A stretch of 64,000 bases of DNA from Escherichia phage p000y. Each line of letters begins with the position of its first letter. Position 1 is the first letter of the stretch. Below the pieces are notes generated by a model. The model was not told where the DNA came from and did not search any database. It saw nothing but the letters and a program-made list of their open reading frames with translations. This document shows, piece after piece, positions 15,277 to 51,394 of the stretch. The translations under genes and the position numbers were made by a program. The stretch lies in the sequence record MK047718.1; one strand, 5' to 3'.

Positions 15277-15962
<686 letters not shown>

Positions 15963-15975
15963 TTTTCACAAAACA

Positions 15976-16005
15976 GTTTACATAAGGATGGTGGTGTGTT
16001 ACTAT
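15976..16005 (+). promoter_or_regulatory. T4-type early promoter (GTTTACA -35, 17-nt spacer, TACTAT -10) upstream of ipI
   Basis: Hexamers read directly from sequence with sigma70 spacing. Confidence 0.55.
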
Positions 16006-16039
16006 CATCCTATCAAATAAACAACCTCAAGGAAATAAA

Positions 16040-16327
16040 ATGAAAACTTATAAAGAATTTATATCACCTGCTGCTAACGTTTCTACTCTGACCGAAGCAA
16101 CCCTTACTTCCGAAGTTATTAAAGCAAACAAAGGCCGTGAGGGTAAACCAATGATTAGTCTGGTTGACGGCGAAGAAGTAAAAGGTACTGTTTACTTAGG
16201 GGATGGATGGTCTGCTAAGAAAGATGGCGCTACTATTGTTATCTCTCCGGCTGAAGAGACTGCACTGTTTAAAGCTAAGCATATTTCTGTAGCTCAGCTT
16301 AAAATTATTGCAAAAACTCTTCTGTAA
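16040..16327 (+). CDS. ipI: internal protein I (IPI-type injected anti-restriction protein precursor)
   Basis: 95 aa; N-terminal capsid-targeting sequence MKTYKEFI followed by prohead-protease-type L-x-E sites; T4 IPI is 95 aa. Confidence 0.85.
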   Translation: MKTYKEFISPAANVSTLTEATLTSEVIKANKGREGKPMISLVDGEEVKGTVYLGDGWSAKKDGATIVISPAEETALFKAKHISVAQLKIIAKTLL

Positions 16328-16330
16328 GTA

Positions 16331-16360
16331 GTTTACACGCTGATAGGACTATGTTATAGT
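16331..16360 (+). promoter_or_regulatory. early promoter cassette (GTTTACA ... TGtTATAGT) with flanking inverted repeat ATAGGACT/AGTCCTAT
   Basis: -35/-10 with 17-nt spacer; 8-bp inverted repeat brackets the -10. Confidence 0.6.
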
Positions 16361-16397
16361 AGTCCTATCAAAACAAATGAGTAAATGGAGAAATAAA

Positions 16398-16583
16398 ATG
16401 AAACGCGCTGAACTGATTCGTAATGTTGCTGTAGTAATTGCTTCAATGGCTTTTAGTTTTTCGATGTTTGTAGGATTCATTTGCGGACTACTGACAACAA
16501 CCGAAAATTCTATCTCATTGGTAGTAGCATTTCTAATCGGCTTAATCGCTATCGTTATGGATAAAATTGCAAAAGGTGAATAG
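16398..16583 (+). CDS. small membrane protein, hypothetical
   Basis: Internal ATG with GGAG SD inside track ORF 16377..16583; hydrophobic core. Confidence 0.6.
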   Translation: MKRAELIRNVAVVIASMAFSFSMFVGFICGLLTTTENSISLVVAFLIGLIAIVMDKIAKGE

Positions 16584-16584
16584 A

Positions 16585-16965
16585 ATGTATAAAGTGTACG
16601 CGGATTATCAGGCTAATCCATCTGAAAAGCCAGGTTGTCAAATTGGATGGGCTCATGATACTTTGCTTGAAGCAGTAGATGCTGCTCAAAAATTAGGATA
16701 TAAATATGTAGAGATTGTTCAACCGACAGGAAAAGTTATTACTCTTGAAGAGTTCAATAATATTAAACCGAACTTTTTACTTTTTGCAGGTGATAATTAT
16801 TATCCTCGCGGTGGATATGCTGATTTAATCGCGAAAGCCGCTACTGAAGATGAACTCCGTGACATTATCAAAGAAAATGAGAACAACCTGATGTATGGTT
16901 CTAATCGCTTTGATTGGTGGCAAATTGTAAATGCCCATACTCATACTATTGTTGATGAAGGTTGA
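16585..16965 (+). CDS. hypothetical protein
   Basis: ATG 16585 with AAGGTG SD inside track ORF 16567..16965. Confidence 0.6.
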   Translation: MYKVYADYQANPSEKPGCQIGWAHDTLLEAVDAAQKLGYKYVEIVQPTGKVITLEEFNNIKPNFLLFAGDNYYPRGGYADLIAKAATEDELRDIIKENENNLMYGSNRFDWWQIVNAHTHTIVDEG

Positions 16966-16967
16966 TA

Positions 16968-17255
16968 ATGATTCTTTATGCTAAAGTATCGTCTATTGAA
17001 AATGGATATAAATATGATCAAGACGCGGCTAAAGCCTTGATTGATGATTATGGCATTTTAACATGTTTTGAAGTTGAAAAGGTTTACATTGACCGTTCAT
17101 CTTCTCAAATTAAATTAGTGAAGGAAGACCGTAAATTTAATACAGTAAATTTTGATTTCTTTATTGAAACGGAAAAAGGTCCTCTTGAATATGATATTTT
17201 CAAGAATCCTTTGGGTCTTGACTGCATCGTAAATATGTATTATCATAAATGGTAA
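16968..17255 (+). CDS. hypothetical protein
   Basis: ATG at 16968 inside track ORF 16962..17255. Confidence 0.6.
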   Translation: MILYAKVSSIENGYKYDQDAAKALIDDYGILTCFEVEKVYIDRSSSQIKLVKEDRKFNTVNFDFFIETEKGPLEYDIFKNPLGLDCIVNMYYHKW

Positions 17256-17352
17256 ATATGCTTTAAGAATTATTTGTTATTATTAACTCATATCGCACTG
17301 ATTAATACCCTCTATCATCAAGGGTTCTTGTTAGAGAGCCTTTGTTAATAAT

Positions 17353-17425
17353 TGGGAATTAGCCAAGTTGGTAAGGCACTGGATTTTGATTCCAGGATGC
17401 AAAGGTTCGAGTCCTTTATTCCCAG
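17353..17425 (+). tRNA. tRNA-Gln (anticodon UUG)
   Basis: Manual cloverleaf: acceptor TGGGAAT/ATTCCCA, anticodon loop TTTTGAT, T-arm AAAGG-TTCGAGT-CCTTT. Confidence 0.8.
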
Positions 17426-17426
17426 C

Positions 17427-17513
17427 GCGAGAATGGCCAAATTGGTAAAGGCACAGCACTTAAAATGCTGCGGAATGATTTCCTTGTGGGTTCGAGTCCC
17501 ACTTCTCGCACCA
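17427..17513 (+). tRNA. tRNA-Leu (anticodon UAA), long variable arm, CCA encoded
   Basis: Acceptor GCGAGAA/TTCTCGC, anticodon loop CTTAAAA, T-loop TTCGAGT. Confidence 0.8.
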
Positions 17514-17518
17514 AATTT

Positions 17519-17592
<74 letters not shown>

Positions 17593-17602
17593 ATTTAATT
17601 TA

Positions 17603-17676
17603 CTCCGTGTAGCTCAGTTTGGTAGAGCGCCTGATTTGGGATCAGGAGGTCCAAGGTTCAAATCCTTGTATGGAGA
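17603..17676 (+). tRNA. tRNA-Pro (anticodon UGG)
   Basis: Acceptor CTCCGTG/TATGGAG with G-U pairs, anticodon loop TTTGGGA, T-loop TTCAAAT. Confidence 0.75.
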
Positions 17677-17678
17677 CT

Positions 17679-17768
17679 GGAGGCGTGGCAGAGTGGTTTA
17701 ATGCACCGGTCTTGAAAACCGGCAGTCGCTCCGGCGACTCATAGGTTCAAATCCTATCGCCTCCGCCA
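17679..17768 (+). tRNA. tRNA-Ser (anticodon UGA), long variable arm, CCA encoded
   Basis: Acceptor GGAGGCG/CGCCTCC, anticodon loop CTTGAAA, T-loop TTCAAAT. Confidence 0.8.
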
Positions 17769-17773
17769 ATTTT

Positions 17774-17849
17774 GCTGATTTAGCTCAGTAGGTAGAGCAA
17801 CTCACTTGTAATGAGAAGGTCGGCGGTTCGATTCCGTCAATCAGCACCA
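17774..17849 (+). tRNA. tRNA-Thr (anticodon UGU), CCA encoded
   Basis: Acceptor GCTGATT/AATCAGC, anticodon loop CTTGTAA, T-loop TTCGATT. Confidence 0.8.
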
Positions 17850-17850
17850 A

Positions 17851-17925
17851 GGCCCTGTAGCTGGAAGGTTCAAGCAAGCGACTCATAATCGCCAGATGGT
17901 GGTTCAATTCCACCCAGGGCCACCA
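17851..17925 (+). tRNA. tRNA with anticodon CAU (Ile lysidine-type as in T4, or Met), CCA encoded
   Basis: Acceptor GGCCCTG/CAGGGCC, anticodon loop CTCATAA, T-loop TTCAATT. Confidence 0.7.
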
Positions 17926-17937
17926 AATTATGAATTA

Positions 17938-18024
17938 GGGGAGTTATCCCGTAGAGGTAGCGGTGTGGACTGTAAATCCATTGTCATTGCGACTCGGGTG
18001 GTTCGACTCCATCACTCCCAACCA
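17938..18024 (+). tRNA. tRNA-Tyr (anticodon GUA), long variable arm, CCA encoded
   Basis: Anticodon stem GTGGA/TCCAT with loop CTGTAAA, T-loop TTCGACT; acceptor has G-A at pair 1-72, so ends are approximate. Confidence 0.65.
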
Positions 18025-18028
18025 ATTT

Positions 18029-18103
18029 GGATGTGTAGCTCAATGGCAGAGCGATCGCCTGTTAAGCGATTGGTTATAGGTTCGAATCCTATCACGTCCG
18101 CCA
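18029..18103 (+). tRNA. tRNA-Asn (anticodon GUU), CCA encoded
   Basis: Acceptor GGATGTG/CACGTCC, anticodon stem ATCGC/GCGAT with loop CTGTTAA, T-loop TTCGAAT. Confidence 0.75.
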
Positions 18104-18107
18104 AATA

Positions 18108-18184
<77 letters not shown>

Positions 18185-18202
18185 ACTTTAAGTGAGGAAA
18201 AT

Positions 18203-18547
18203 ATGAAAGGCAATGTTTATCTGGTAGTTCATGATTTAACGTTTTATTTTAATGAATATGATACAGTTATTTCTCATCGATTGATTAATTCACTTTATCA
18301 GCATGCCGATTACATCTATGTTCAAAATGAATTCGGTCATTGGAAGTTCATTAAAAACCGTTCTGGGTTAACTAGTTTTGAATACTTTGACCGTAAAGAC
18401 CTTTTAAACGAAATTCCATTGCAACATCGGTTCCAGAAACGCGAATCATTATATTATTGCCGTCATATACCAAACGCAGAATGTGCCAATGAAGCGATTA
18501 ATCTATGGCGTAGACGTAGAGAACAAATTGATGATATGCCAAAATAA
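18203..18547 (+). CDS. hypothetical protein
   Basis: ATG 18203 with GAGGAA SD, immediately after tRNA-Arg; track ORF 18155 start overlaps the tRNA. Confidence 0.6.
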   Translation: MKGNVYLVVHDLTFYFNEYDTVISHRLINSLYQHADYIYVQNEFGHWKFIKNRSGLTSFEYFDRKDLLNEIPLQHRFQKRESLYYCRHIPNAECANEAINLWRRRREQIDDMPK

Positions 18548-18858
18548 GAAGCCGGGTCGCTACCGGTAAGTCGTCGGACTGATGTTCCCTGAGTAAGGAC
18601 TGGTCTTAATAAATCTTTATGATTCGTTAATATCCCCTTACATCACAGCAGAAACGGCGCACAGAATTATCGATTCGAGGAAATATCTTTGCCGTAAGCC
18701 GAGTAGCGTTTTTGACGGAACGTTCGGATATGGTCGAGATATGGCCTTTTAAAAATATTGAGTAGCGTCAACTGCTTAATAACCGGGTTCGAATCCCGGC
18801 GTTTCGTACAAACATTTGCCTTAGCAGGTGGGACCCCAACAAGGTTGCCGCAAGGCAT
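18548..18858 (+). ncRNA. putative stable small RNA region (position equivalent to T4 species 1/2 RNAs); contains a tRNA-like T-arm
   Basis: About 310 nt without a convincing plus-strand ORF between a CDS and a strong terminator; contains CCGGG-TTCGAAT-CCCGG T-arm-like hairpin. Confidence 0.3.
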
Positions 18859-18887
18859 AGCCCCTTCCGAAAGGTTGGGGCTTTTTT
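18859..18887 (+). terminator. rho-independent terminator (AGCCCC...GGGGCT + T6), copy 1 of a repeated stem-loop
   Basis: GC-rich hairpin followed by TTTTTT. Confidence 0.7.
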
Positions 18888-18931
18888 GCATAATAATAAA
18901 TAGATAAGTTAATTAACTTAGGAAAAGTAAC

Positions 18932-19396
18932 ATGAAGTCATATGCAGAATTTTTGACTGAACAATCTAGTTCAGATGTAAAAGCCGCAGCAATTGCAGCA
19001 ATTCAAGCAGGTAAATATTCTTATAAAGACGCCTCTGATGAAGAACGTTTCCGTTTTATTAGAGATTTTAAAGCTGAAGGTTTTACTAATGCTAATACTG
19101 TTAGCCGAGTTTTTAAAAGCCTAGCTGCATCAGGTGAATTGTTCCAGAAAGCTACAGGTAAAGCACCAGCACCAAAAGCGGACCCTAAAGCAGCTCAAGA
19201 AAAAAATATCGCCAAAGGAATTATTTCTAAGTATGAAGCAATTCTTAAAGAACTTTTGGTAATCAAAACTGAAGGTCAGAAACTAGCTCGAGCATATAGC
19301 TTCAAAGATAATCCTCACGCTCATAGCCTTGAGTATGTTGAAGATATCCAAAAACTTATTAAAGACCGTATCTGGTCTGCTAAGCAAATTAAATAG
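18932..19396 (+). CDS. internal-protein-like protein with capsid-targeting sequence
   Basis: 154 aa; N-term MKSYAEFLTEQ matches the IP capsid-targeting consensus MK(T/S)Y(Q/A)EF(I/L)xE. Confidence 0.65.
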   Translation: MKSYAEFLTEQSSSDVKAAAIAAIQAGKYSYKDASDEERFRFIRDFKAEGFTNANTVSRVFKSLAASGELFQKATGKAPAPKADPKAAQEKNIAKGIISKYEAILKELLVIKTEGQKLARAYSFKDNPHAHSLEYVEDIQKLIKDRIWSAKQIK

Positions 19397-19401
19397 TAGA
19401 A

Positions 19402-19429
19402 AGCCCCTTCCTTACGGTTGGGGCTTTTT
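19402..19429 (+). terminator. rho-independent terminator, copy 2 of the repeated stem-loop
   Basis: AAGCCCCTTCCTTACGGTTGGGGCTTTTT. Confidence 0.7.
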
Positions 19430-19462
19430 GGCATCTAGGGCATAAAAATATTTCATAAAGAT

Positions 19463-19491
19463 GTTTACTTCTTCCCTAGATGTGTTACTAT
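19463..19491 (+). promoter_or_regulatory. early promoter (GTTTACT -35, TACTAT -10)
   Basis: Follows terminator copy 2; 16-nt spacer. Confidence 0.55.
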
Positions 19492-19519
19492 AGACCTATC
19501 AAAACATGAGGAGAATATT

Positions 19520-20023
19520 ATGAGTCTTTACACTGAACTGAATAAAAAATCTGAAGAATCTGCTGAAACTATTTTTAAAAACGTGCAAAAGCGTATTTTA
19601 GAAAAGATGTATAACACTGCAGCTAAAGGTGAAAAATCTTGCCGGTTTCCGATGAGGTGTTCTTCCGATTTATGCGCAAATACTATTGAATGGCTGGAAA
19701 GTGAAGGTCTTACGGTAGAGAAAAACCCGGCGACTTCTATTGATAACGAATCATATATTAGTATTTCTTGGGATAAATCAAGGGTAGAAGAGAAAGATGG
19801 TGATTGGGTTGTAGATGTTAAAACTTCTGATGGTGGACGTTCTGTTGAAGTTTCAGCTGTAGTTAAAGGTACCCACGAACAAAGGACTTGGGGTTGGGGT
19901 GGTGAAGAAAAAGAAATTGTTCTTAGTGTGATTGCCAGGTCAACTAGTAATAAAATTGCACAAAGCATCATTGACGCTGCAATTGCTGAAGCAGAAAAAA
20001 TTTGCAAAATTAAAAATAAATGA
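19520..20023 (+). CDS. hypothetical protein
   Basis: 167-aa ORF with GAGGAG SD after early promoter. Confidence 0.65.
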   Translation: MSLYTELNKKSEESAETIFKNVQKRILEKMYNTAAKGEKSCRFPMRCSSDLCANTIEWLESEGLTVEKNPATSIDNESYISISWDKSRVEEKDGDWVVDVKTSDGGRSVEVSAVVKGTHEQRTWGWGGEEKEIVLSVIARSTSNKIAQSIIDAAIAEAEKICKIKNK

Positions 20024-20052
20024 TGTACAAGCACCAAGGATGGTGATACTAT
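20024..20052 (+). promoter_or_regulatory. early promoter (TGTACA -35, TACTAT -10)
   Basis: 17-nt spacer; spacer contains the shared AAGGATGG motif. Confidence 0.5.
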
Positions 20053-20082
20053 AGACTTATCAACTACAGAGGAGTAAACAAA

Positions 20083-20247
20083 ATGACTACTTTAATTATT
20101 TGGTTCGATGAAAATGAAGAAACATACTGTGTGAATATTGGTGAAAGTCCAATGCCTGAATTTGAATCCTCAGATAAAAACTCTGTTGTATCTTGGGCTG
20201 AAGGTTATAAAGCAGCTAAAGGTGACGTTGAAATAATTTACATCTAA
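20083..20247 (+). CDS. small hypothetical protein (54 aa)
   Basis: Below track cutoff; ATG with AGAGGAG SD directly after promoter. Confidence 0.45.
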   Translation: MTTLIIWFDENEETYCVNIGESPMPEFESSDKNSVVSWAEGYKAAKGDVEIIYI

Positions 20248-20265
20248 GTAAGTTTATGTTATAGT
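20237..20265 (+). promoter_or_regulatory. early promoter (TTTACA -35, TATAGT -10)
   Basis: 17-nt spacer. Confidence 0.5.
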
Positions 20266-20293
20266 AATCACATCAAATCAAGAGGAAAATAAA

Positions 20294-20521
20294 ATGGCTA
20301 AAGTTAGTATTGATGTCGTTGATTATGAATACACCGAAGAAGTTATTCGCAACCGACACCCTGAAGTTCATATCGATTCAGTCCAAGATTCCAAGTTCTG
20401 GACAACTGAGCTTAATCTGAGTGGTCCTTATGAAGCTGTTAAGAAGTTCATGGTTGAAGAATACTGCGAAGGCATGCACCCCGAAGACGCAGAGTTTTAT
20501 GTCAATTTGATTAAAAAATAA
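20294..20521 (+). CDS. hypothetical protein
   Basis: 75-aa ORF with SD. Confidence 0.6.
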   Translation: MAKVSIDVVDYEYTEEVIRNRHPEVHIDSVQDSKFWTTELNLSGPYEAVKKFMVEEYCEGMHPEDAEFYVNLIKK

Positions 20522-20556
20522 TTTACAAACTCTTGAGAGCAGAGTATAATGCTCTC
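20522..20556 (+). promoter_or_regulatory. early promoter (TTTACA, 17 nt, TATAAT) with 6-bp inverted repeat GAGAGC/GCTCTC bracketing the -10 (operator-like)
   Basis: Read from sequence; near-duplicate cassette at 50995-51029. Confidence 0.6.
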
Positions 20557-20590
20557 ATGGATAATAAACCACCAATTGAAAGGTAATAGT

Positions 20591-21184
20591 ATGAACACAC
20601 TGAAGAAACTTGTTGAATTCATCCGCACTAAACTGGGTACTGCTATGGCTAAAAATCTGACTGTCGAAGAACAGTATAACGCAGCTGCAGATAAGTTGAT
20701 TACCCAGATCAAAGAACTAAAAACGGCTTCTGTTAAATCTATTAATGAAGAAAAACGTATTCGCGAACTTGTTAATGAAAAGAACAAACAAGCCGCTTCT
20801 AAGGAACGTGAAATTCGTAAGCTCCTGGCTGAAGGACAAGATGTTACCATGCATGCTAAGCTTGGTCTTCTGTATCGTCGAACTGCCGAACAACTTAATA
20901 CAAAAGCTGACGGGTACGCCGCTATGCGAATTGAAATTGCTCGTAAGGTGGTTGAACTTGACGATGCTCGTCAGAACCTGGCAATCAAACTCGAATACAT
21001 TCGTGAAACTCGAGCAGCCAATGCCCTTGGTATCTCTACGGCTGATGATGTAATTGAAATCGCTGCACTGACTAAGGTTGATATCGAAGACACTCTGACT
21101 CGTGTTGAAACGTTCAATGGCACTCCAGCTGGCGTCGAAACCACTTCTGCTGATGTACAAGAATATATTAACTCTTTGAAATAA
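20591..21184 (+). CDS. coiled-coil protein, hypothetical
   Basis: ATG 20591 inside track ORF 20549..21184; heptad-rich. Confidence 0.65.
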
Positions 21185-21193
21185 AATAATACG

Positions 21194-21214
21194 GAGGACT
21201 CCGGTCCTCCTTTT
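21194..21214 (+). terminator. rho-independent terminator
   Basis: GGAGGACT-CCGG-TCCTCC hairpin followed by TTTT. Confidence 0.65.
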
Positions 21215-21233
21215 GGATAATAAAGGAGTTAAC

Positions 21234-21836
21234 ATGCGAAACCAAAATAATGATATTGACTCAATGTTCGAAGAGTTCCGAGATAAGGTAAATCCACCTA
21301 CGTCTTTAGTTGATTCATTACGATATGTTGCAACTGGACGTAAATGGTACTGGTCGTCTTCTTATGAGACTACTGAGAAAACGGCTAGCCATAGCAGAAA
21401 ATCTTTATTAGCCCCAGGTATTATGATTCATGATATCGGAGCTATTGCTAAACTAGTTGCAGACCATGATATTAGATTCACTGATTTCGTTGCTCCTACG
21501 TGGTCTGTTTGTTGTTTAAACACTGAATGGGAATATATCAGCGAACGCTCTGAAGATTATTATGGTTTTAGAGATAAGCTTTTAAGGTCTAACATGTTTT
21601 ATATCGATACTGAAGTTCTAGTCGATAATAAAAAATATTACTTTACGTTAATCATCGATTCCGAAACTATGTATGAAGGCAAGCCTTTGCTTAAAAGAGT
21701 TGATGCTTTAAGTGCTATTGATGCGCTTTATGAAACTATGGTTGTTAGTCCTAATTTCACTAACAATTTAATCCTTGAGCAATTTATTATGGAATGTAGA
21801 GAATATGTCAAAGCCAACCCTATACATGCCAAGTAA
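21234..21836 (+). CDS. hypothetical protein ending in FIMECR motif
   Basis: ATG 21234 with AAGGAG SD (track ORF begins at TTG 21213). Confidence 0.65.
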   Translation: MRNQNNDIDSMFEEFRDKVNPPTSLVDSLRYVATGRKWYWSSSYETTEKTASHSRKSLLAPGIMIHDIGAIAKLVADHDIRFTDFVAPTWSVCCLNTEWEYISERSEDYYGFRDKLLRSNMFYIDTEVLVDNKKYYFTLIIDSETMYEGKPLLKRVDALSAIDALYETMVVSPNFTNNLILEQFIMECREYVKANPIHAK

Positions 21837-22200
21837 GCCCTGGGCGTATGAATACAAGCGTAAATTAATCCCAAATGAAGTACTATTTGGCCCTATTTTA
21901 GCTTTAGCATTTTTAATCTTTATGATTATAGGAGCTGTTTTAGATTCTAGTGAAGTTATATCGTCTGATGCAGCATTTTCATTAATGTTCGTCGCACCAC
22001 TTATTGTACCGTTTTTATTAATGCCTATTAATTGGGTAGGATATTGGCACCAAGGCCGTCATCACAGAGCCCGATTAAGAGAATGGAAAGTTCAGTGCGC
22101 AAAAGCCCAAGCTCGGTATGATGAAGCTGTTAAAAAGTATGAATATGAAGAAGCTATGGAATTCGTTAAGGAAATAAGATGCAAAAGCCTCAACTCTTAA
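21805..22200 (+). CDS. membrane protein, hypothetical
   Basis: Hydrophobic segments; start uncertain (21805 or 21826), overlaps upstream gene. Confidence 0.5.
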   Translation: MSKPTLYMPSKPWAYEYKRKLIPNEVLFGPILALAFLIFMIIGAVLDSSEVISSDAAFSLMFVAPLIVPFLLMPINWVGYWHQGRHHRARLREWKVQCAKAQARYDEAVKKYEYEEAMEFVKEIRCKSLNS

Positions 22201-22538
22201 CCGTATGGCCTTCTCTTGGTGAGAACATTCTAATTTTTATTATGAGTATTGGCATGGGATTTGCCTTTGGATTAGTTGGATTTCTTATTGACGGCGTTGT
22301 GTTAGGATTTATAGGGAACACTGGTGGATTCACAGACCAATGGCAGGACTTACGGTATACCCAAGCCTTTGCATCCATCGCATCATTTTGTACTGTAGTC
22401 TATTTTTACTACGATTTTATAAACCACAACAAGAAAAATAAAAAGGTTTACGCTTCTCAAATGATTAGTTATAATGAACTCCTAGCTAGACGTGAAAATG
22501 AAACAATAGAAAACTTTATTAAGGAATGTAGAAAATGA
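22179..22538 (+). CDS. membrane protein with C-terminal FIKECR motif
   Basis: 119-aa ORF, two hydrophobic helices. Confidence 0.6.
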   Translation: MQKPQLLTVWPSLGENILIFIMSIGMGFAFGLVGFLIDGVVLGFIGNTGGFTDQWQDLRYTQAFASIASFCTVVYFYYDFINHNKKNKKVYASQMISYNELLARRENETIENFIKECRK

Positions 22539-22840
22539 GTAAGATTATTGAAATTAAAGTACCAGAGTTTAATGATGCCAAATCCGCTTCAGATGCAATT
22601 TATAAACTTCTGAATCAAGCTGAACGTATCGAAGAAGAAGCAACAAAGATCGCAGACCAATATGCAGTATCGTTTTCTGTAGGTGATTATGGTAGCGGTC
22701 GTACTTATTATCCTAAGGGTGAAATCGTATCCCAGTGGATGAAAGATGAAATTGAAAATAATGGCGGCGATGTTAAGCGTGAAGGTAATGGATACGTTAT
22801 TACTGAAGGTGCTTGGGTTTCGTCTTCTGCGTTGTGCTAA
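22535..22840 (+). CDS. tandem paralog 1 of 3, C-terminal WVSSSALC
   Basis: 101-aa ORF; shares C-terminal motif and junction sequence with the next two genes. Confidence 0.65.
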   Translation: MSKIIEIKVPEFNDAKSASDAIYKLLNQAERIEEEATKIADQYAVSFSVGDYGSGRTYYPKGEIVSQWMKDEIENNGGDVKREGNGYVITEGAWVSSSALC

Positions 22841-22849
22841 GGAATCATT

Positions 22850-23122
22850 ATGTCTAAAGAACAAACCGAACTGGCTGAAGCTGTAGCAAAAATCTATGCA
22901 GCTATTGAGGCTGCCAAAGAAATTGCTGATAAACAAAACACAACATTCAACTTGTACCCAGCTTATGGTATGGGTGGAACCTATCATTCACCCGGACATC
23001 TTAAAGCCGATCTTGAACGTTGTACAAAAAACGGCTATGCTGAATGGGCTGACGTTTACCAATACGACTACAACCTGAGCCTCGAAACCGGTGGTTGGGT
23101 CGCATCTTCTCACACTTGCTAA
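22850..23122 (+). CDS. tandem paralog 2 of 3, C-terminal WVASSHTC
   Basis: 90-aa ORF. Confidence 0.65.
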   Translation: MSKEQTELAEAVAKIYAAIEAAKEIADKQNTTFNLYPAYGMGGTYHSPGHLKADLERCTKNGYAEWADVYQYDYNLSLETGGWVASSHTC

Positions 23123-23131
23123 GGAAACAAT

Positions 23132-23329
23132 ATGTCTCGTGAATTAGATTGTGCTGTACGTACGGCAGTAGCTGCTCTGGAAAACCTGTTCCAAATTGCA
23201 ACAGAAGAACGCGAAGAAGTTACATTATGGATTGAAGATAACGCAGGTCTGAATCTCCAGGACGCGATCTCATTATCCCACAATAGTATTACTGTTCAAG
23301 GCTGGGTATCATCTAGTTATTCTTGCTAA
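23132..23329 (+). CDS. tandem paralog 3 of 3, C-terminal WVSSSYSC
   Basis: 65-aa ORF. Confidence 0.6.
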   Translation: MSRELDCAVRTAVAALENLFQIATEEREEVTLWIEDNAGLNLQDAISLSHNSITVQGWVSSSYSC

Positions 23330-23334
23330 AACAG

Positions 23335-23363
23335 TTTACAACAAGATAGGGCTATGTTATAGT
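23335..23363 (+). promoter_or_regulatory. early promoter cassette (TTTACA, 17 nt, TATAGT)
   Basis: Same cassette type as 16331. Confidence 0.55.
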
Positions 23364-23391
23364 AGTCCTATCAAATTAAATGGAGTCCACA

Positions 23392-23631
23392 ATGATTTAT
23401 TACGAAAGTATCGGAACTGAAGTAGTTGCTAAAACTATTAGTCGTGAAAAGTTTGCAAAGATATTCGATATGCGTTATAAAAAATCTGAACATAAAGGCA
23501 TCCGATTCGAAGATGCGCACTGTACAATTTGCCCTTATAATGAAGACATAAACGGTACAATCGTTCCATTGGTAGAGGCTTCACATGTTGACCTCTGGGA
23601 TGAATATAATATCGCATGTCGTGAAATTTAA
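23392..23631 (+). CDS. hypothetical protein
   Basis: ATG 23392 after GGAG SD (track ORF 23380). Confidence 0.55.
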   Translation: MIYYESIGTEVVAKTISREKFAKIFDMRYKKSEHKGIRFEDAHCTICPYNEDINGTIVPLVEASHVDLWDEYNIACREI

Positions 23632-23659
23632 GTTAATGAATTAATCCGAGGAAAATATT

Positions 23660-24616
23660 ATGATGTTAGTTATTGGTTCTCGTGCACTTCACTATCACGG
23701 TCTTATTGATTCTAGCGCTATTAAAAATAGTGATTGGGACTTTATTGCGGATCAATGTTCTTGGAATGCATTCAAAAATCAAATGATGGGTGTATATGTT
23801 CACCAAGATAACCCTGATGTCCAAGTTTTCAAATGCTTCCATAATGGACGCGAAACTCATTTTGAAGCATATATTGTTCCGGCAATCACTAATGTCCGTG
23901 AATTAGTCGGTGAACTCACTCCTGAAGATTTCACGTCTTCTTATGACCTTTTAAAATACGCCAAGAAAAATTTGACTAAAGACCGTTTGAACGGGTTTTA
24001 CTGGGCAACTCCCGAGATATGTCTTGCAATTAAGATGTCTCATCGTTTCAAGAAAAATAATCCATTCTTTTTAAAGACTATGAATCATATTCAGTATCTT
24101 CGTGGTAAAGGTGTTACACTGAACGATGAACTTACTGAAATTATGCTGAAACGCCAGAAAGAAACCTTGAATTATGCTCACCCAGTTCTTGACACTTCTA
24201 AAAGTGCGTTCTTTAAAGATGACATCTATACATATGACCATGATACTATTCATGAAGCCATTGCACTAACTGACCAGCCTGCTTATAAGTTTTATATGAA
24301 AGAAGGCTCAGAAGTTATGACATCACGCGAGAAGTTCGAATCATTACCAGAAATGGTTAAATTAGCCGGTGTATATGAAGAAGCTTGTGTATTAGCTCTT
24401 GAACGTTCACAGATTCCTAACGACTTTAAAATCCATCCACGTGATAGTTTTATGATGGCCCTTGAAAAGGTCTGTACATCAATCACATCAGGATGGTTCC
24501 GTGAGTTCGCTTGGGAAAATTATAGCAAAGTAGTAAGTATGTACCAAAGCTTAGGACACGACGATTACGTCAAGCGTTTCAAACAAAACTTTCATATGGT
24601 AAAACCTTTCAAATAA
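23660..24616 (+). CDS. predicted nucleotidyltransferase-fold protein (Pol-beta superfamily motif GS...SDxD)
   Basis: 318 aa; N-terminal VIGSRALHYHG...SDWDF fits the minimal NTase motif hG[GS]x(9-13)Dh[DE]. Confidence 0.55.
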   Translation: MMLVIGSRALHYHGLIDSSAIKNSDWDFIADQCSWNAFKNQMMGVYVHQDNPDVQVFKCFHNGRETHFEAYIVPAITNVRELVGELTPEDFTSSYDLLKYAKKNLTKDRLNGFYWATPEICLAIKMSHRFKKNNPFFLKTMNHIQYLRGKGVTLNDELTEIMLKRQKETLNYAHPVLDTSKSAFFKDDIYTYDHDTIHEAIALTDQPAYKFYMKEGSEVMTSREKFESLPEMVKLAGVYEEACVLALERSQIPNDFKIHPRDSFMMALEKVCTSITSGWFREFAWENYSKVVSMYQSLGHDDYVKRFKQNFHMVKPFK

Positions 24617-24629
24617 TTTCACAAAACAG

Positions 24630-24658
24630 TTTACAAGGTCTGTAGTTGTTGATACTAT
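24630..24658 (+). promoter_or_regulatory. early promoter cassette (TTTACA, 17 nt, TACTAT)
   Basis: Read from sequence. Confidence 0.55.
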
Positions 24659-24696
24659 AGACCTATCAAAACAAATGAGTGAATGGAGATATAAAA

Positions 24697-24897
24697 ATGA
24701 CTACTTTGAATAAACGTTTCGGTAAAGCTAAACCTGGTTGTGCAGCAGAACGTCGTTATGTTTTCGCTCAGTTAGAAGATGTAGAGTATCAGATTAATCA
24801 AGTTCACATTACTGGTATCGAGCCTATGTGTGGCCTTGAAGCTCTTCGTGAAGTTCGTGATGGGTATCGTCGTGACATCGAAGAAATGTCAAAATAA
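24697..24897 (+). CDS. hypothetical protein
   Basis: ATG 24697 after GGAG SD (track ORF 24679). Confidence 0.55.
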   Translation: MTTLNKRFGKAKPGCAAERRYVFAQLEDVEYQINQVHITGIEPMCGLEALREVRDGYRRDIEEMSK

Positions 24898-24898
24898 G

Positions 24899-24927
24899 TG
24901 TACAAACTGATAGGGCTATATTATAGT
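24899..24927 (+). promoter_or_regulatory. early promoter cassette (TGTACA, 17 nt, TATAGT)
   Basis: Read from sequence. Confidence 0.5.
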
Positions 24928-24955
24928 AGTCCTATTAAAACATGAGGAGAATATT

Positions 24956-25261
24956 ATGAAATTAGGCGAAACCAACCGAATTGGTCTTTTAACAATATTT
25001 GCATCACCTTTTTACGCAGCTCTTTCTGTTGCAGTATTACAAAAGGCTTACGATATGGATGGTGTTCCTGGTTTTGTATTCTTATCGCCGTTTTTGCTAT
25101 TCGTTGGAGCATTGTTATTATATGCCACGACTAGTTTCGACCATAATGTCTGGGTTAATTATAAATGTAAATTGTCTGAAGAAGAACATGCAGAAGCTCG
25201 TAAAAAAGCTATTGAATCTACCAATCTAGAAAATTTCATTAAAGAATGTCGAGGAAAATAA
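24956..25261 (+). CDS. membrane protein with C-terminal FIKECR motif
   Basis: 101 aa, two hydrophobic helices, GAGGAG SD. Confidence 0.65.
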   Translation: MKLGETNRIGLLTIFASPFYAALSVAVLQKAYDMDGVPGFVFLSPFLLFVGALLLYATTSFDHNVWVNYKCKLSEEEHAEARKKAIESTNLENFIKECRGK

Positions 25262-25262
25262 T

Positions 25263-25949
25263 ATGAATAGTTCTAAAACTTTTAATAGTCAAGCTCGTGC
25301 AGTTGGTAGTTTTGCACATAACGTACAAAATGACCGAATCAAAAATGAACCAATGTTCTTTAATTGTGATTTGGGTTTTGCTTGGGATAATGGTGGCTCA
25401 ATCACTCGTAGCTTTATTGCCAATCTCCCAATTGATTGGACTAATCAACATGTTGTATTTGATTCTCGGGTTCATATGCTGATGCCTGGTTGGTATCCTG
25501 CTATTCCTGGATACCACCATGACGATGTTCCTCGCCCTGATATTCCAGTTGGTCAACACTTTATTACTGCAGGACAACCTGACTATGACAACCCTCGTTA
25601 CCATTCTGAACATATTCTTGGTCTTGTTAACGCTGACGTGTGTCCTACTCATTTTGCAACAGGAACTGCAGAGTTCAGTCAGATTCCTGATGGCGAACTT
25701 ATCTATCGCCAGTGGCACAAAGAAGTCCTCGAAAAAATTGAAAAAGGTGAACTAGAGAAATGGGAAGCTCCAGATCGTACTCTTCTTCAGTTTGATTGGC
25801 AAACATGGCACACTGGTTCTCGTGCAATTAGTAATGGATGGCGTTGGTTCGGACGTGTATCTCGTAATACAGACCGAGTTAAAAAGATTACCAATGAAAT
25901 TCGTGTCAATGCTCAAGTTTATCTGGAATTCCCTATGGAAGGCTGGTAA
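25263..25949 (+). CDS. hypothetical protein
   Basis: 228-aa ORF. Confidence 0.65.
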   Translation: MNSSKTFNSQARAVGSFAHNVQNDRIKNEPMFFNCDLGFAWDNGGSITRSFIANLPIDWTNQHVVFDSRVHMLMPGWYPAIPGYHHDDVPRPDIPVGQHFITAGQPDYDNPRYHSEHILGLVNADVCPTHFATGTAEFSQIPDGELIYRQWHKEVLEKIEKGELEKWEAPDRTLLQFDWQTWHTGSRAISNGWRWFGRVSRNTDRVKKITNEIRVNAQVYLEFPMEGW

Positions 25950-27953: not shown

Positions 27954-27980
27954 ACATTCATCAACTACTTGGAGGAAATT

Positions 27981-29066: not shown

Positions 29067-29396
29067 ATGAAAACATATCAGGAGTTTATCACTGAAGTTA
29101 CATTATCTGCGGAACAGAAAGCTGCTATCGAAGAAGGTAAGAATCCCAAAGTAACATATAAAGTAAATAGTAAAGGCGTTTTTGATGGCTTGGTTCAAGA
29201 CCCTGAATTGAAAAAAGCTCTTTCTAAAACTAATGCGTACTTTGCTCCTAAATTTAACGCAGCCGGTGTACTTATTGGATTGGATGTATTCAACTCTAAA
29301 GGTGTTCTATCTAATGCCTTTGGTTATGCCGCTAACAAAATTACCAAAGCCGCATGGGAATCCAATACCAAACAAGCTCAAAAGCCTAGAGTATAA
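29067..29396 (+). CDS. internal-protein-like protein with capsid-targeting sequence
   Basis: MKTYQEFITE N-terminus. Confidence 0.65.
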   Translation: MKTYQEFITEVTLSAEQKAAIEEGKNPKVTYKVNSKGVFDGLVQDPELKKALSKTNAYFAPKFNAAGVLIGLDVFNSKGVLSNAFGYAANKITKAAWESNTKQAQKPRV

Positions 29397-29568
29397 TTCT
29401 TGCCTAATAAAGGGAAACGCAACCTCTCCTCATGAACGTCGAGTCCTCTGAGTGATGTACCTTTTCCAACCTGTAATAAGGTCGAGCGCAATGCGGTAAT
29501 GGGTTTACATAGCGAGTCGAAGGACCTAACATGTGCCACGGAATGGCCCAAACCTTAAGAGAAATAAT

Positions 29569-31561: not shown

Positions 31562-31611
31562 TTTACTTCTCCTCTAGTTGTGTTACTATAGACTTGTCAA
31601 CTAGAGGAGAA
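31562..31611 (+). promoter_or_regulatory. early promoter (TTTACT, 16 nt, TACTAT) embedded in a perfect 14-bp inverted repeat that contains the regB Shine-Dalgarno
   Basis: Arms TTCTCCTCTAGTTG (31567-31580) and CAACTAGAGGAGAA (31598-31611) flank the -10. Confidence 0.6.
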
Positions 31612-35168: not shown

Positions 35169-35174
35169 TTTACT

Positions 35175-35202
35175 AGCCCCTTCCGAAAGGTCGGGGCTTT
35201 TT
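35175..35202 (+). terminator. rho-independent terminator, copy 3 of the repeated stem-loop
   Basis: TAGCCCCTTCCGAAAGGTCGGGGCTTTTT. Confidence 0.7.
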
Positions 35203-35214
35203 GGCATCTATCAG

Positions 35215-35242: not shown

Positions 35243-35269
35243 AAACCTTACTTACTAGAGGAGAACGTT

Positions 35270-41475: not shown

Positions 41476-41504
41476 TGTACAACCAAGGATGGTTGGAGTA
41501 TAAT
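41476..41504 (+). promoter_or_regulatory. early promoter (TGTACA, 17 nt, TATAAT), copy A of duplicated promoter
   Basis: Spacer CCAAGGATGGTTGGAG identical to copy at 42496. Confidence 0.55.
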
Positions 41505-41530
41505 AAATTTTTCAACATGAGGAATATAAA

Positions 41531-42495: not shown

Positions 42496-42524
42496 TTTAC
42501 AACCAAGGATGGTTGGAGTATAAT
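42496..42524 (+). promoter_or_regulatory. early promoter (TTTACA, 17 nt, TATAAT), copy B
   Basis: Near-identical to 41476-41504. Confidence 0.55.
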
Positions 42525-42552
42525 GAATCTATCTTAACGAGAGGAAAATATT

Positions 42553-50692: not shown

Positions 50693-50755
50693 TAGTTTAC
50701 AATGGTAGGAAGATAATAACATGTCTTCCTATCGTCTTAAAATGAGGAAAATATC

Positions 50756-50995
50756 GTGGCCCAAGAATTAGATTTTATCAAATTCAAAAAACACCTCGAC
50801 GTTAAAATTGGGGATTCAATTGTTAGGATTGAGTATGACATTTTAACAGATGCTATTACTGTTAGATGTGATGGAAATAGTTTCAGCTTCGATACAACCG
50901 AAAACAAATACCCAATCTATAAAGGCATCTTTGATATGGGTGTTGATATTACTCCGCGTGATACAAATTACTTACTTTTCATGCTTAAAAAATAG
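50756..50995 (+). CDS. hypothetical protein (GTG start)
   Basis: GAGGAA SD then GTG. Confidence 0.5.
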   Translation: MAQELDFIKFKKHLDVKIGDSIVRIEYDILTDAITVRCDGNSFSFDTTENKYPIYKGIFDMGVDITPRDTNYLLFMLKK

Positions 50996-51029
50996 TATAC
51001 AAACTCTTGAGAGATGAGTATAATTCTCT
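50995..51029 (+). promoter_or_regulatory. early promoter (TATACA, 17 nt, TATAAT) with inverted repeat GAGAGA/TCTCTC bracketing the -10; duplicate of cassette at 20522
   Basis: Shares ACAAACTCTTGAGAG...GAGTATAAT...CTCTC...GGATAATAAA with 20522-20565. Confidence 0.6.
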
Positions 51030-51061
51030 CGTTGGATAATAAAATAACCGAGGAAAATAAT

Positions 51062-51394
51062 ATGTCTACTAAAATCAAAAACGTAGTTAATTCTTTCGCT
51101 TTCGATAAAGTTGTTACTCTTCTGGAATCCGGCAATATTGTTACTCCTCAAGTTCTTGACGCGTGGGAATTCCGTCTTTATGAAATCATGCAAAAACACG
51201 ACCAGAAAATTGGACGTAATTCTATTCGTGAAATTCTAGTACAATATATTCTTTCCGAATTTGACGTTGCTGCATTTGGTGTTGAATCTAAAGCTTATCA
51301 GAAACATGAAATCTCTGAAAAAACTATCCGTCGTATGAAAAATCAACGTAAGAAAAAATTCGCTGACTTGAAAATTGTTAAGGCGGTAAAATGA
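51062..51394 (+). CDS. hypothetical protein
   Basis: ATG 51062 with GAGGAA SD inside track ORF 51014. Confidence 0.6.
   Translation: MSTKIKNVVNSFAFDKVVTLLESGNIVTPQVLDAWEFRLYEIMQKHDQKIGRNSIREILVQYILSEFDVAAFGVESKAYQKHEISEKTIRRMKNQRKKKFADLKIVKAVK

Follow-up and report, generated by a model that had tools for sequence, protein, structure and literature searches.

Probable paralogous early-promoter cassettes of the PeSL type, with the −10 element inside an inverted repeat, in the RB69-like Escherichia phage p000y

Two closely similar blocks of some 60 bp that precede unrelated genes of Escherichia phage p000y are, with a probability that we put at about 0.7, paralogous immediate-early promoters of the PeSL type, read by the host sigma-70 RNA polymerase. 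Both (cassettes A and B) lie in the window, i.e. the whole 64 000-nt stretch of sequence record MK047718.1 that was analysed. The inverted repeat that embraces their −10 elements points to a hairpin of the sense strand with the −10 in its loop, rather than to a sequence-specific operator.

RESULTS

Two copies of one cassette precede unrelated genes

The window was assigned to Mosigvirus, the RB69/JS09-like group of T-even phages; around both cassettes it is 97–99% identical to the Mosigvirus genomes APCEc01, JS09, NBG1 and Shf125875. Its early-transcribed strand is the + strand, and gp55, the late sigma factor, is encoded at ~51.9–52.5 kb. The initial annotation had reported near-identical sequences at 20521–20565 and 50995–51040. 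These were present at those places on the + strand, within a longer stretch of homology: pairwise alignment of 20511–20568 (A) with 50985–51043 (B) gave 52 identical columns out of 59, with a single 1-nt indel, and beyond these blocks identity dropped to background on both flanks. A 32-nt pattern, ACAAACTCTTGAGAGNNGAGTATAATNCTCTC, matched exactly at 20525–20556 and 50999–51030 (+ strand); no further match was found in the window with up to three mismatches allowed, and 100 shuffles yielded none. A third, partial copy at 29364–29400 (68–70% identity) was considered and rejected, having neither a −35, nor the arms, nor a downstream start.

The A/B pair is not unique in its similarity within the window. 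Among 22 early-promoter-like cassettes found there its identity outside the hexamers (0.75, against a median of 0.40) is the joint highest, the pair 16332/35664 being an example of another promoter subfamily whose members are as alike as A and B. The proteins encoded downstream of A (197 aa) and B (110 aa) had no detectable similarity to each other, in agreement with the earlier description of the two genes as unrelated, nor had those encoded upstream (75 and 79 aa, respectively). The features of both cassettes are collected in Table 1.

Table 1. Features of cassettes A and B and of the genes around them, in coordinates of the window
Feature	Position	Strand	Basis or remark
Cassette A, whole block	20511–20568	+	alignment with B; covariance model 69.2 bits
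A-rich UP-like tract of A, TTAAAAAATAA	20511–20521	+	last codons and stop of upstream gene
frd.3-like gene upstream of A, 75 aa	20294–20521; TAA 20519–20521	+	Pfam Phage_FRD3, 2.3e-38
Putative −35 of A, TTTACA	20522–20527	+	sigma-70 consensus; orthologous site annotated 'promoter' in NBG1
5′ arm of A, TGAGAGC, in the 17-bp spacer (~−24 to −18)	20534–20540	+	
Putative −10 of A, TATAAT, in hairpin loop	20545–20550	+	
3′ arm of A, GCTCTCA, discriminator region (−6 to +1)	20551–20557	+	
Conserved leader of A, GGATAATAAA	20559–20568	+	holds −10-like GATAAT
SD (AAGG) and ATG of gene A	20580–20583; 20591	+	
Downstream gene A, 197 aa	20591–21184	+	phrog_1203
Terminator-like hairpin at end of gene A unit	21193–21210		
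Cassette B, whole block	50985–51043	+	alignment with A; covariance model 64.7 bits
RB69ORF075c-like gene upstream of B, 79 aa	50756–50995; TAG 50993–50995	+	
Putative −35 of B, TATACA	50996–51001	+	directly after TAG stop
5′ arm of B, TGAGAGA	51008–51014	+	
Putative −10 of B, TATAAT, in loop	51019–51024	+	
3′ arm of B, TCTCTCG	51025–51031	+	outer pair U·G
SD (GAGG) and ATG of gene B	51050–51053; 51062	+	
Downstream gene B, 110 aa, gp55.2 homolog (DUF7570)	51062–51394	+	Pfam 6.9e-40; RB69 ortholog annotated gp55.2

Both copies have the anatomy of a sigma-70 early promoter

In both copies the AT-rich tract upstream (TTAAAAAATAA in A, TTAAAAAATAG in B) ends at the stop codon of the preceding gene, and the first base of the −35 hexamer is the one that follows this codon. 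Cassette A (TTTACA-17-TATAAT) agrees with the sigma-70 consensus at 11 of 12 positions, which makes it the best match within 15500–25500, and cassette B (TATACA-17-TATAAT) at 10 of 12. The Pe consensus, GTTTAC...N17...TAnnnT with an A-rich UP, on the early strand and before an early-type ORF, was likewise found at A and at B. Orthologs of the cassettes had already been labelled early promoters: the corresponding site of NBG1 is annotated 'promoter' and that of fPS-90 'predicted early promoter', while the RB69 ortholog of B is the predicted early promoter Pe:42515 (Nolan et al. 2006, supplement). The sigma-70 anatomy and these labels uphold the initial annotation in calling the repeat a duplicated promoter cassette; to judge from consensus, orthology and the annotation made by others, both copies are probably active as promoters.

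Transcription is predicted to start at ~A20557 in A and at ~G51031 in B, the usual 7 nt downstream of the −10. Since the 3′ arm of the inverted repeat reaches only to ~+1, the cassette's own transcript would not carry the hairpin, which would be present in read-through RNA coming from upstream. Promoter-like sites lie on the + strand upstream of the cassettes (at 20237, 49570 and 50271) and a terminator scan found no terminator-like site between them and A or B, so read-through into both cassettes is to be expected. A −10-like GATAAT or TATAAA is also present at about +4 to +12, and the explanation proposed here does not account for it. The leader GGATAATAAA (in T4, GAGTATAAAAT) was inspected as a possible T4 late promoter (TATAAATA) and rejected, as it agrees at only 6 of 8 positions.

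The cassette belongs to a family present in five genera

A blastn search with a 65-nt cassette query hit 737 phage records, in up to four places per Mosigvirus and in one per Tequatrovirus. The complete relative OQ031495 has four copies, located before ndd, a 99-aa ORF, the 197-aa ORF and gp55.2, whereas T4, T2, fPS-90 and LF73P3 have a single one, before motB. Thus, the two genera differ both in copy number and in the genes that the cassette precedes. The cassette was also found before ndd in the Kanagawavirus IME523, downstream of pseT.3 in Bp7, directly after ndd.1 in SP18, and before a homolog of the 197-aa ORF in the Tequatrovirus SHBML-50-1. A search for further copies, which the initial annotation had proposed as a check, gave none elsewhere in the window but up to four per Mosigvirus and one per Tequatrovirus.

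The T4/T2 homolog (GTTTACAAACTCTTGGGACCAGAGTATAATGGTCCCGTGGAGTATAAAA) lies upstream of motB, an early gene (PMC6070864), at ~7.15–7.21 kb of T4. This motB early promoter shares with the Mosigvirus cassettes the −35, the start of the spacer, the loop and the leader, and differs in its stem, GGGACC/GGTCCC, which in T4 is more stable than the stems of A and B.

A covariance model built on 15 distinct copies from five genera scored 64–70 bits at two sites in the window, four in a complete Mosigvirus, one in a Tequatrovirus and one in RB69 1–50 kb, while every other site in the 450 kb scanned remained at ≤22 bits. On sequence grounds, the family is therefore a discrete subfamily of putative promoters. 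Rfam covariance models gave no hit at E ≤ 1 in 20400–20700, and in the whole window tRNAs alone reached the gathering score. Scans of IMG/VR with the pattern TACAAACTCTTG-N8-GAGTATAAT, and of JGI metagenomes and GTDB genomes with TACAAACTCT-N10-GAGTATAAT, returned unrelated chance matches only; all comparative data on the family consequently come from the GenBank phage collection.

The arms vary in sequence and keep their complementarity

The inverted repeat around the −10, previously given as 6 bp, is real and slightly longer. In A, TGAGAGC pairs with GCTCTCA (7 bp plus a closing A-T pair), and in B, TGAGAGA pairs with TCTCTCG (7 bp including one U·G). The innermost difference between the arms of the two copies (C..G vs A..T) is compensatory, and the RB69 ortholog of B (CGAGAGA/TCTCTCG) has C-G in place of the U·G. 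In A, moreover, GGA of the leader pairs with TCT at 20531–20533, lengthening the stem by 3 bp.

None of the 15 copies departed from the loop sequence (A/T)GAGTATAAT or from the segment TACAAACTC. The spacer segment ACAAACTCT was also invariant in the 15 copies, for which the hairpin and the standard contacts of sigma-70 offer no explanation. The arms, in contrast, occurred as GAGAGC/GCTCTC, GAGAGA/TCTCTC, GGGACC with GGTCCC or GGTCCT, GGGAGT/ACTCCC, GGGAGC with GCTCCT or GTTCCC, and GAGGAC/GTCCTC. At least eight different arm pairs were present, with complementarity alone being kept. Over the 7-bp helix of the 15 copies 97.1% of cells could pair, with changes on both sides in four of the seven pairs (16 cells); sliding the partner by 1–3 columns reduced pairing to 37–54%. 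The covariation score was 0.574 against 0.285 for shuffled alignments, with 0/500 shuffles reaching the observed value, a statistic that assumes independence and overstates it here because the 15 sequences share a phylogeny. Among the non-Watson-Crick cells of the family there were 12 G·U and one A·C (P = 0.003). Since a G·U pair on one strand is a mismatch on the other, this bias is for the sense strand.

Folded as RNA, the hairpin of A (including the outer TCT/GGA) gave −13.9 kcal/mol (z = −3.4) and that of the T4 motB homolog −19.7 kcal/mol (z = −3.5). The hairpin of B gave −8.5 kcal/mol (z = −1.2) and was absent from the minimum-energy fold of its 111-nt context. Arms that vary while complementarity is kept, with G·U in the sense orientation only, suggest that it is a base-paired strand that is conserved, and not a recognition sequence for a protein.

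The same geometry occurs at other early promoters

Early promoters were predicted in a complete Mosigvirus (n = 32) and a Tequatrovirus (n = 35), and for each the best-scoring stem that holds the −10 in its loop was determined. Mean scores were 6.34 and 6.10, respectively, against 4.3–4.4 when the spacer was shuffled and 4.5–4.9 when downstream halves were swapped (0/200 control sets reached the observed value). Stems scoring ≥8 were found at 25–26% of the predicted early promoters, compared to 1–5% of the controls. The arms are unrelated between promoters, e.g. GATAGGACTA/TAGTCCTATC, GGTAGAGTT/AACTCTACC and AGCCGACAAGACTA/TAGTCTTGTTGGTT, and G·T exceeded A·C by 43:14 over the predicted early promoters of both genomes (P = 1.5 × 10–4). 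Given this enrichment, the focal pair is one instance of a common design. Hairpins of another layout, extending from the spacer to the SD, were also seen elsewhere in the window, for example 31567–31580 paired with 31598–31611.

A neighbouring promoter carries a flipped loop

A hairpin is also present at the promoter that precedes the ORF at 50756, with arms at 50704–50713 and 50724–50733. Its 10-nt loop (50714–50723), TAATAACATG, is the exact reverse complement of CATGTTATTA, the loop present in OQ031495 and RB69, so that the −10 TATTAT lies on the minus strand in p000y, O157tp3, NBG1 and F2 (in F2 with changes). The flipped state creates a promoter-like site on the minus strand, TTAAGA-16-TATTAT. 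About 23 of 126 records were ≥90% identical to the version found in the window and were taken to have the window-like orientation; sequence inspection in six phages showed three to be exactly window-like, one to be a variant and two to have the opposite orientation. A flipped-loop version of cassette A was not found in the phage collection, where the best match (91.9% identity) had the normal orientation; in the phages sampled, the focal cassette is thus not invertible.

Cassettes lie at the boundaries of inserted or replaced modules

Compared with T4, Mosigvirus has ORF075c and its flanking promoter cassettes inserted between 55.3 and 55.2, and its gp55.3 lacks 13 C-terminal residues present in that of T4. 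Where Mosigvirus has hairpin B, a UUCG terminator hairpin is found in T4, and the leader directly after it, TTGGATAATAAAAT, is the one that also follows hairpin B. The 3′ end of T4 55.3 was considered as a promoter with a GATAAT −10 and rejected in view of this UUCG hairpin and of the lack of a properly spaced −35. After frd.3, T4 differs from Mosigvirus in the gene that follows, in the intergenic region and in the hairpin. In a Tequatrovirus, the 197-aa ORF and the cassette occur together, preceded by another gene than in Mosigvirus. A chimeric cassette occurs in WFL6982, with an A-type 5′ half, a B-type 3′ half and a C/T mismatch in the stem.

DISCUSSION

Relation to PeSLs and to other hairpin-embedded promoters

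PeSLs were defined in RB49/phi1 by Arbiol et al. 2010 as intergenic elements in which a stop codon and an AT-rich tract are followed by a sigma-70 promoter with a stem-loop, and these by an SD and an ATG; the stem-loops may contain G-T pairs, and their subclasses include some placed between the two hexamers and some that overlap the −10 (PMC2839356). In cassettes A and B, a sigma-70-like promoter with 17-bp spacing is preceded by an AT-rich tract, the stop codon of the preceding gene falls within the cassette, a stem-loop of 7–8 bp surrounds the −10 within the promoter, and the SD and start codon of the downstream ORF are found at the 3′ end. Like PeSLs, which favour variable regions, the cassette is repeated in the genome, with several copies before small unrelated ORFs and at boundaries of insertions or replacements between related phages. 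The stems differ: those of the RB49/phi1 PeSLs consist of G-runs and C-runs, those of A and B are short, purine-rich and without a U-tract. Comeau et al. 2014 extended PeSLs to PST/T4 and nt-1/KVP40, and the text available describes the stem-loops of PST/T4 as 'just upstream' of the promoter (PMC4122927). In those two sources, as far as they were accessible, the subclass that embraces the −10 is thus documented for RB49/phi1 only, the RB69 group is not among the phages described, and neither covariation across genera nor a sense-strand G·U bias, both found in the present analysis, is reported. Cassettes A and B are therefore, as judged from their sequence, an RB69-group addition to the known PeSLs and T-even early-promoter cassettes.

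Promoters embedded in hairpins are found in T4 at soc, 49 and I-TevI. Likewise, T4 late promoters lie inside the stem that sequesters the gene e ribosome binding site (PMC3014915). As in A and B, the complete hairpin of these late promoters is present in read-through RNA only, the transcript of the promoter itself beginning within the hairpin or beyond it. Their 3′ arm, however, is the Shine-Dalgarno region, so that translation is blocked, whereas the 3′ arm of A and B coincides with the discriminator region, leaving the SDs free (20580–20583 and 51050–51053).

A promoter cassette with an RNA-level hairpin

The proposed explanation is that the host sigma-70 RNA polymerase would recognise the A-rich tract, the −35, the 17-bp spacer and the TATAAT −10 of both cassettes, and would start transcription ~7 nt after the −10, giving immediate-early expression of any ORF placed downstream. 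Such a reading of both promoters would by itself account for the co-expression of unrelated genes; the dedicated DNA-binding factor that the initial annotation had deduced from their shared upstream region would not be needed. The hairpin of 7–8 bp, with the −10 in its loop and a 3′ arm ending at ~+1, would be carried by read-through RNAs alone, and an RNA-level role on these transcripts is its most likely function: it may act as an intercistronic attenuator, an insulator or a 3′-end protector. The homology patch of ~60 bp formed by promoter and hairpin would allow modules of cassette plus ORF to recombine, which would explain why the same cassette stands before unrelated genes in one genome and before different genes in different genera.

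Alternative explanations

An unlikely alternative is that the repeat is a functionless by-product of DNA processes, its complementarity being kept by quasi-palindrome template switching and gene conversion during T-even replication, and its copies existing only through cassette recombination. Mutations templated by quasi-palindromes are a classical finding in T4 rII, the inverted loop of the neighbouring hairpin (50704–50733) indicates that DNA-level events do take place at such repeats, and the WFL6982 chimera is of the kind expected. In addition, recombination between PeSL copies of RB49/phi1, giving mini-circles, was demonstrated experimentally (PMC2839356). Symmetric DNA processes, however, do not predict a strand bias in which G·T outnumbers A·C (43:14 over the early promoters, 12:1 in the family), and this alternative is further opposed by the 3′ arm consistently ending near +1 and by the enrichment of the geometry, with different arms, in two genera.

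The initial annotation had taken the palindrome around the −10 for an operator; a dimeric repressor of phage or host origin would bind it and switch both genes off together, possibly as part of the shut-off of early promoters. The palindrome does bracket the −10, as at lac O1, lambda OR/PR and LexA boxes, where a palindrome also lies over the core promoter; the arms are alike within one Mosigvirus genome (GRGAGM); and early-promoter shut-off is a process whose mechanism is not understood, neither AsiA nor ModA explaining it (PMC2988021, PMC3014915). Yet those classical operators have half-sites that are conserved in sequence and face the same side of the helix, and their cognate repressors are known, whereas in A and B complementarity alone is conserved: arm sequences diverge, G·U is tolerated and A·C avoided, and many other early promoters have the same geometry with unrelated arms. 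The half-site centres of the cassettes, at ~−20 and ~−4, are 16 bp apart, and a dimer binding on one face would have them ~10–11 or 21 bp apart; 16 bp amounts to ~1.5 helical turns and would place the half-sites on opposite faces, an unusual arrangement for the site of a dimeric repressor. We know of no candidate repressor in T-even phages. The operator reading is thus very unlikely. A factor that recognises structure, or a degenerate palindrome, may nevertheless bind the cassette repeat.

Equally little weight is given to the idea that one-quarter to one-half of the T-even early promoters share, in the form of a hairpin that displays the −10 in its loop, a strand-specific regulatory device that is kept by compensatory change from T4 to the RB69 group and could serve as a handle for shut-off or toggling. 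If this were true, it could operate through a structure-specific factor, through read-through RNA, or through loop flipping as seen at 50714–50723.

That the hairpin is purely an intrinsic terminator laid over a promoter, ending upstream early transcripts in a rho-independent manner, is less likely still. A phi1 PeSL stem-loop did cut lacZ read-through as strongly as rrnB T1 in the experiments of Arbiol et al., who report promoter activity for the RB49/phi1 PeSLs and terminator-like activity for this one stem-loop (PMC2839356), and the UUCG hairpin of T4, found at the corresponding position before 55.2, does have a U-run. The hairpins of A and B, though, are followed by no U-tract (AUGGAUAAUAAA and GUUGGAUAAUAAA; tails ATGGATAA and GTTGGATA), which makes a classical terminator role unlikely; neither was reported as terminator-like by the terminator scan, and their stems are short (7–8 bp) and AU/GA-rich.

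Finally, a chance likeness, with nothing but the early-promoter consensus in common between the two promoters, can be dismissed; the initial annotation had named chance similarity as one outcome that would overturn it: a −35, a −10 and A-rich flanks are common to all early promoters of the phage, but the 52/59 identity extends over spacer and leader, shuffles gave no match, more than 40 bits separate family members from other promoters in the covariance model, and the cassette is conserved in five genera.

Implications for T4-type phages

The paralogous-promoter reading implies that the promoter-plus-stem-loop cassettes known from other T4-type phages are in use in the RB69 group as well. It also sets right the operator interpretation, under which experimental effort would go into the search for a repressor that is probably not there. 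Compensatory and G·U-type changes, seen across five genera and at unrelated early promoters, suggest that the hairpin is under sense-strand selection, a point that the PeSL literature, centred on recombination in the parts available, does not establish. Natural loop inversion, in turn, can flip a −10 element. Stem selection and loop inversion may both offer entry points to the insulation, attenuation and silencing of the very strong early promoters of T-even phages.

Conserved segments outside the stem of the cassettes

In alignment A1 (15 distinct copies of the early-promoter cassette from five genera), the segment TACAAACTC, which comprises the end of the -35 element and the first bases of the spacer, is invariant in 15/15 copies; the adjoining stem varies freely across the same copies. 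This invariance is not accounted for by known sigma-70 contacts, and only partly by the outer helix, the TCT/GGA extension of the hairpin A stem.

A second shared segment, the leader motif TGGATAATAAA(AT), lies 3′ of hairpins A and B and includes a -10-like GATAAT at approximately +4 to +12. The same leader is found in T4 (NC_000866, ∼40.81 kb; positions 1311-1322 of the T4 segment L003, minus strand), where it follows a UUCG terminator hairpin located within the 3′-end of gene 55.3. The T4 motB copy has GAGTATAAA at this place, almost repeating the loop sequence. One possibility is that the leader is left over from another cassette; another is that it serves as a sigma-70-dependent promoter-proximal pause element.

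In phage WFL6982, gp55.2 is preceded by a chimeric cassette: an A-type 5′ arm and loop (GAGAGCAGAG) are followed by a B-type 3′ arm (TCTCTCG), the A/B join resulting in a C/T mismatch in the stem. This looks like the product of a crossover between two cassette copies, within the loop or the -10.

Coordinates of the promoter features (in the window unless another record is given)
Feature	Coordinates	Remarks
Invariant segment TACAAACTC	20524-20532 (A); 50998-51006 (B)	alignment A1 columns 3-11
Leader TGGATAATAAA(AT)	20559-20568 (A); 51034-51043 (B)	
Chimeric cassette	within MK373774 42124-42485	L023 (WFL6982 record)
Hairpin upstream of ORF 50756	50696-50745	arms 50704-50713/50724-50733; loop 50714-50723
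Terminator hairpins AGCCCCTTCCGAAAGGTTGGGGCTTTTT	18858-18891; 19401-19434; 35174-35207	near-identical
In-spacer hairpin promoters	41476-41510; 42496-42530	also OQ031495 162371, 162928
Related spacers CACCAAGGATGGTG	20024; 27925	
Spacer/Shine-Dalgarno pair	31567-31580/31598-31611	14 bp, TTCTCCTCTAGTTG/CAACTAGAGGAGAA
Spacer/Shine-Dalgarno pair	27929-27938/∼27970-27979	estimated by eye
Spacer/Shine-Dalgarno pair	35219-35226/∼35261-35268	estimated by eye

An inverted loop upstream of the ORF at 50756

The loop of the early-promoter hairpin preceding this ORF, TAATAACATG, is the exact reverse complement of CATGTTATTA, the loop present in the Mosigvirus relative OQ031495 and in RB69. The -10 TATTAT therefore now lies on the minus strand, which is predicted to inactivate the plus-strand promoter; the flip also yields a minus-strand promoter-like site, TTAAGA-16-TATTAT. 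Natural isolates show both orientations, the window-like one being seen in O157tp3, NBG1 and F2. Of 126 records, ∼23 share 90% identity or more with this hairpin region as it stands in the window.

Other promoter families in the window

Three near-identical terminator hairpins were found, two of which (19401 and 35174) are followed ∼10–30 nt further on by an early promoter, and so represent classical terminator-plus-promoter PeSLs (promoter-early stem-loops). Another early-promoter subfamily carries the hairpin CAACCA AGGA TGGTTG entirely within the spacer, with TATAAT as its -10; related spacers occur at two further sites. The window also contains ten clustered plus-strand tRNA genes (17353-18181; Rfam RF00005, 30–74 bits) and small paralogous ORFs (16040, 27641, 28402, 28727 and 29067; several in tandem at 28.4–29.1 kb) that share the start ATGAAAAC(N)TAT(N)A(N)GAATTTAT, encoding MKTYKEFI...

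A separate class of early promoters has, immediately 3′ of the -35, spacer bases that complement the downstream Shine-Dalgarno region without a mismatch. A like arrangement is known for T4 gene e, although the versions in the window differ in being built on early promoters. In T4 soc and 49, as in gene e, the ribosome binding site is masked in read-through RNA. The spacer/Shine-Dalgarno pairing would likewise mask the ribosome binding site in read-through RNAs, leaving it free in the promoter's own transcript.
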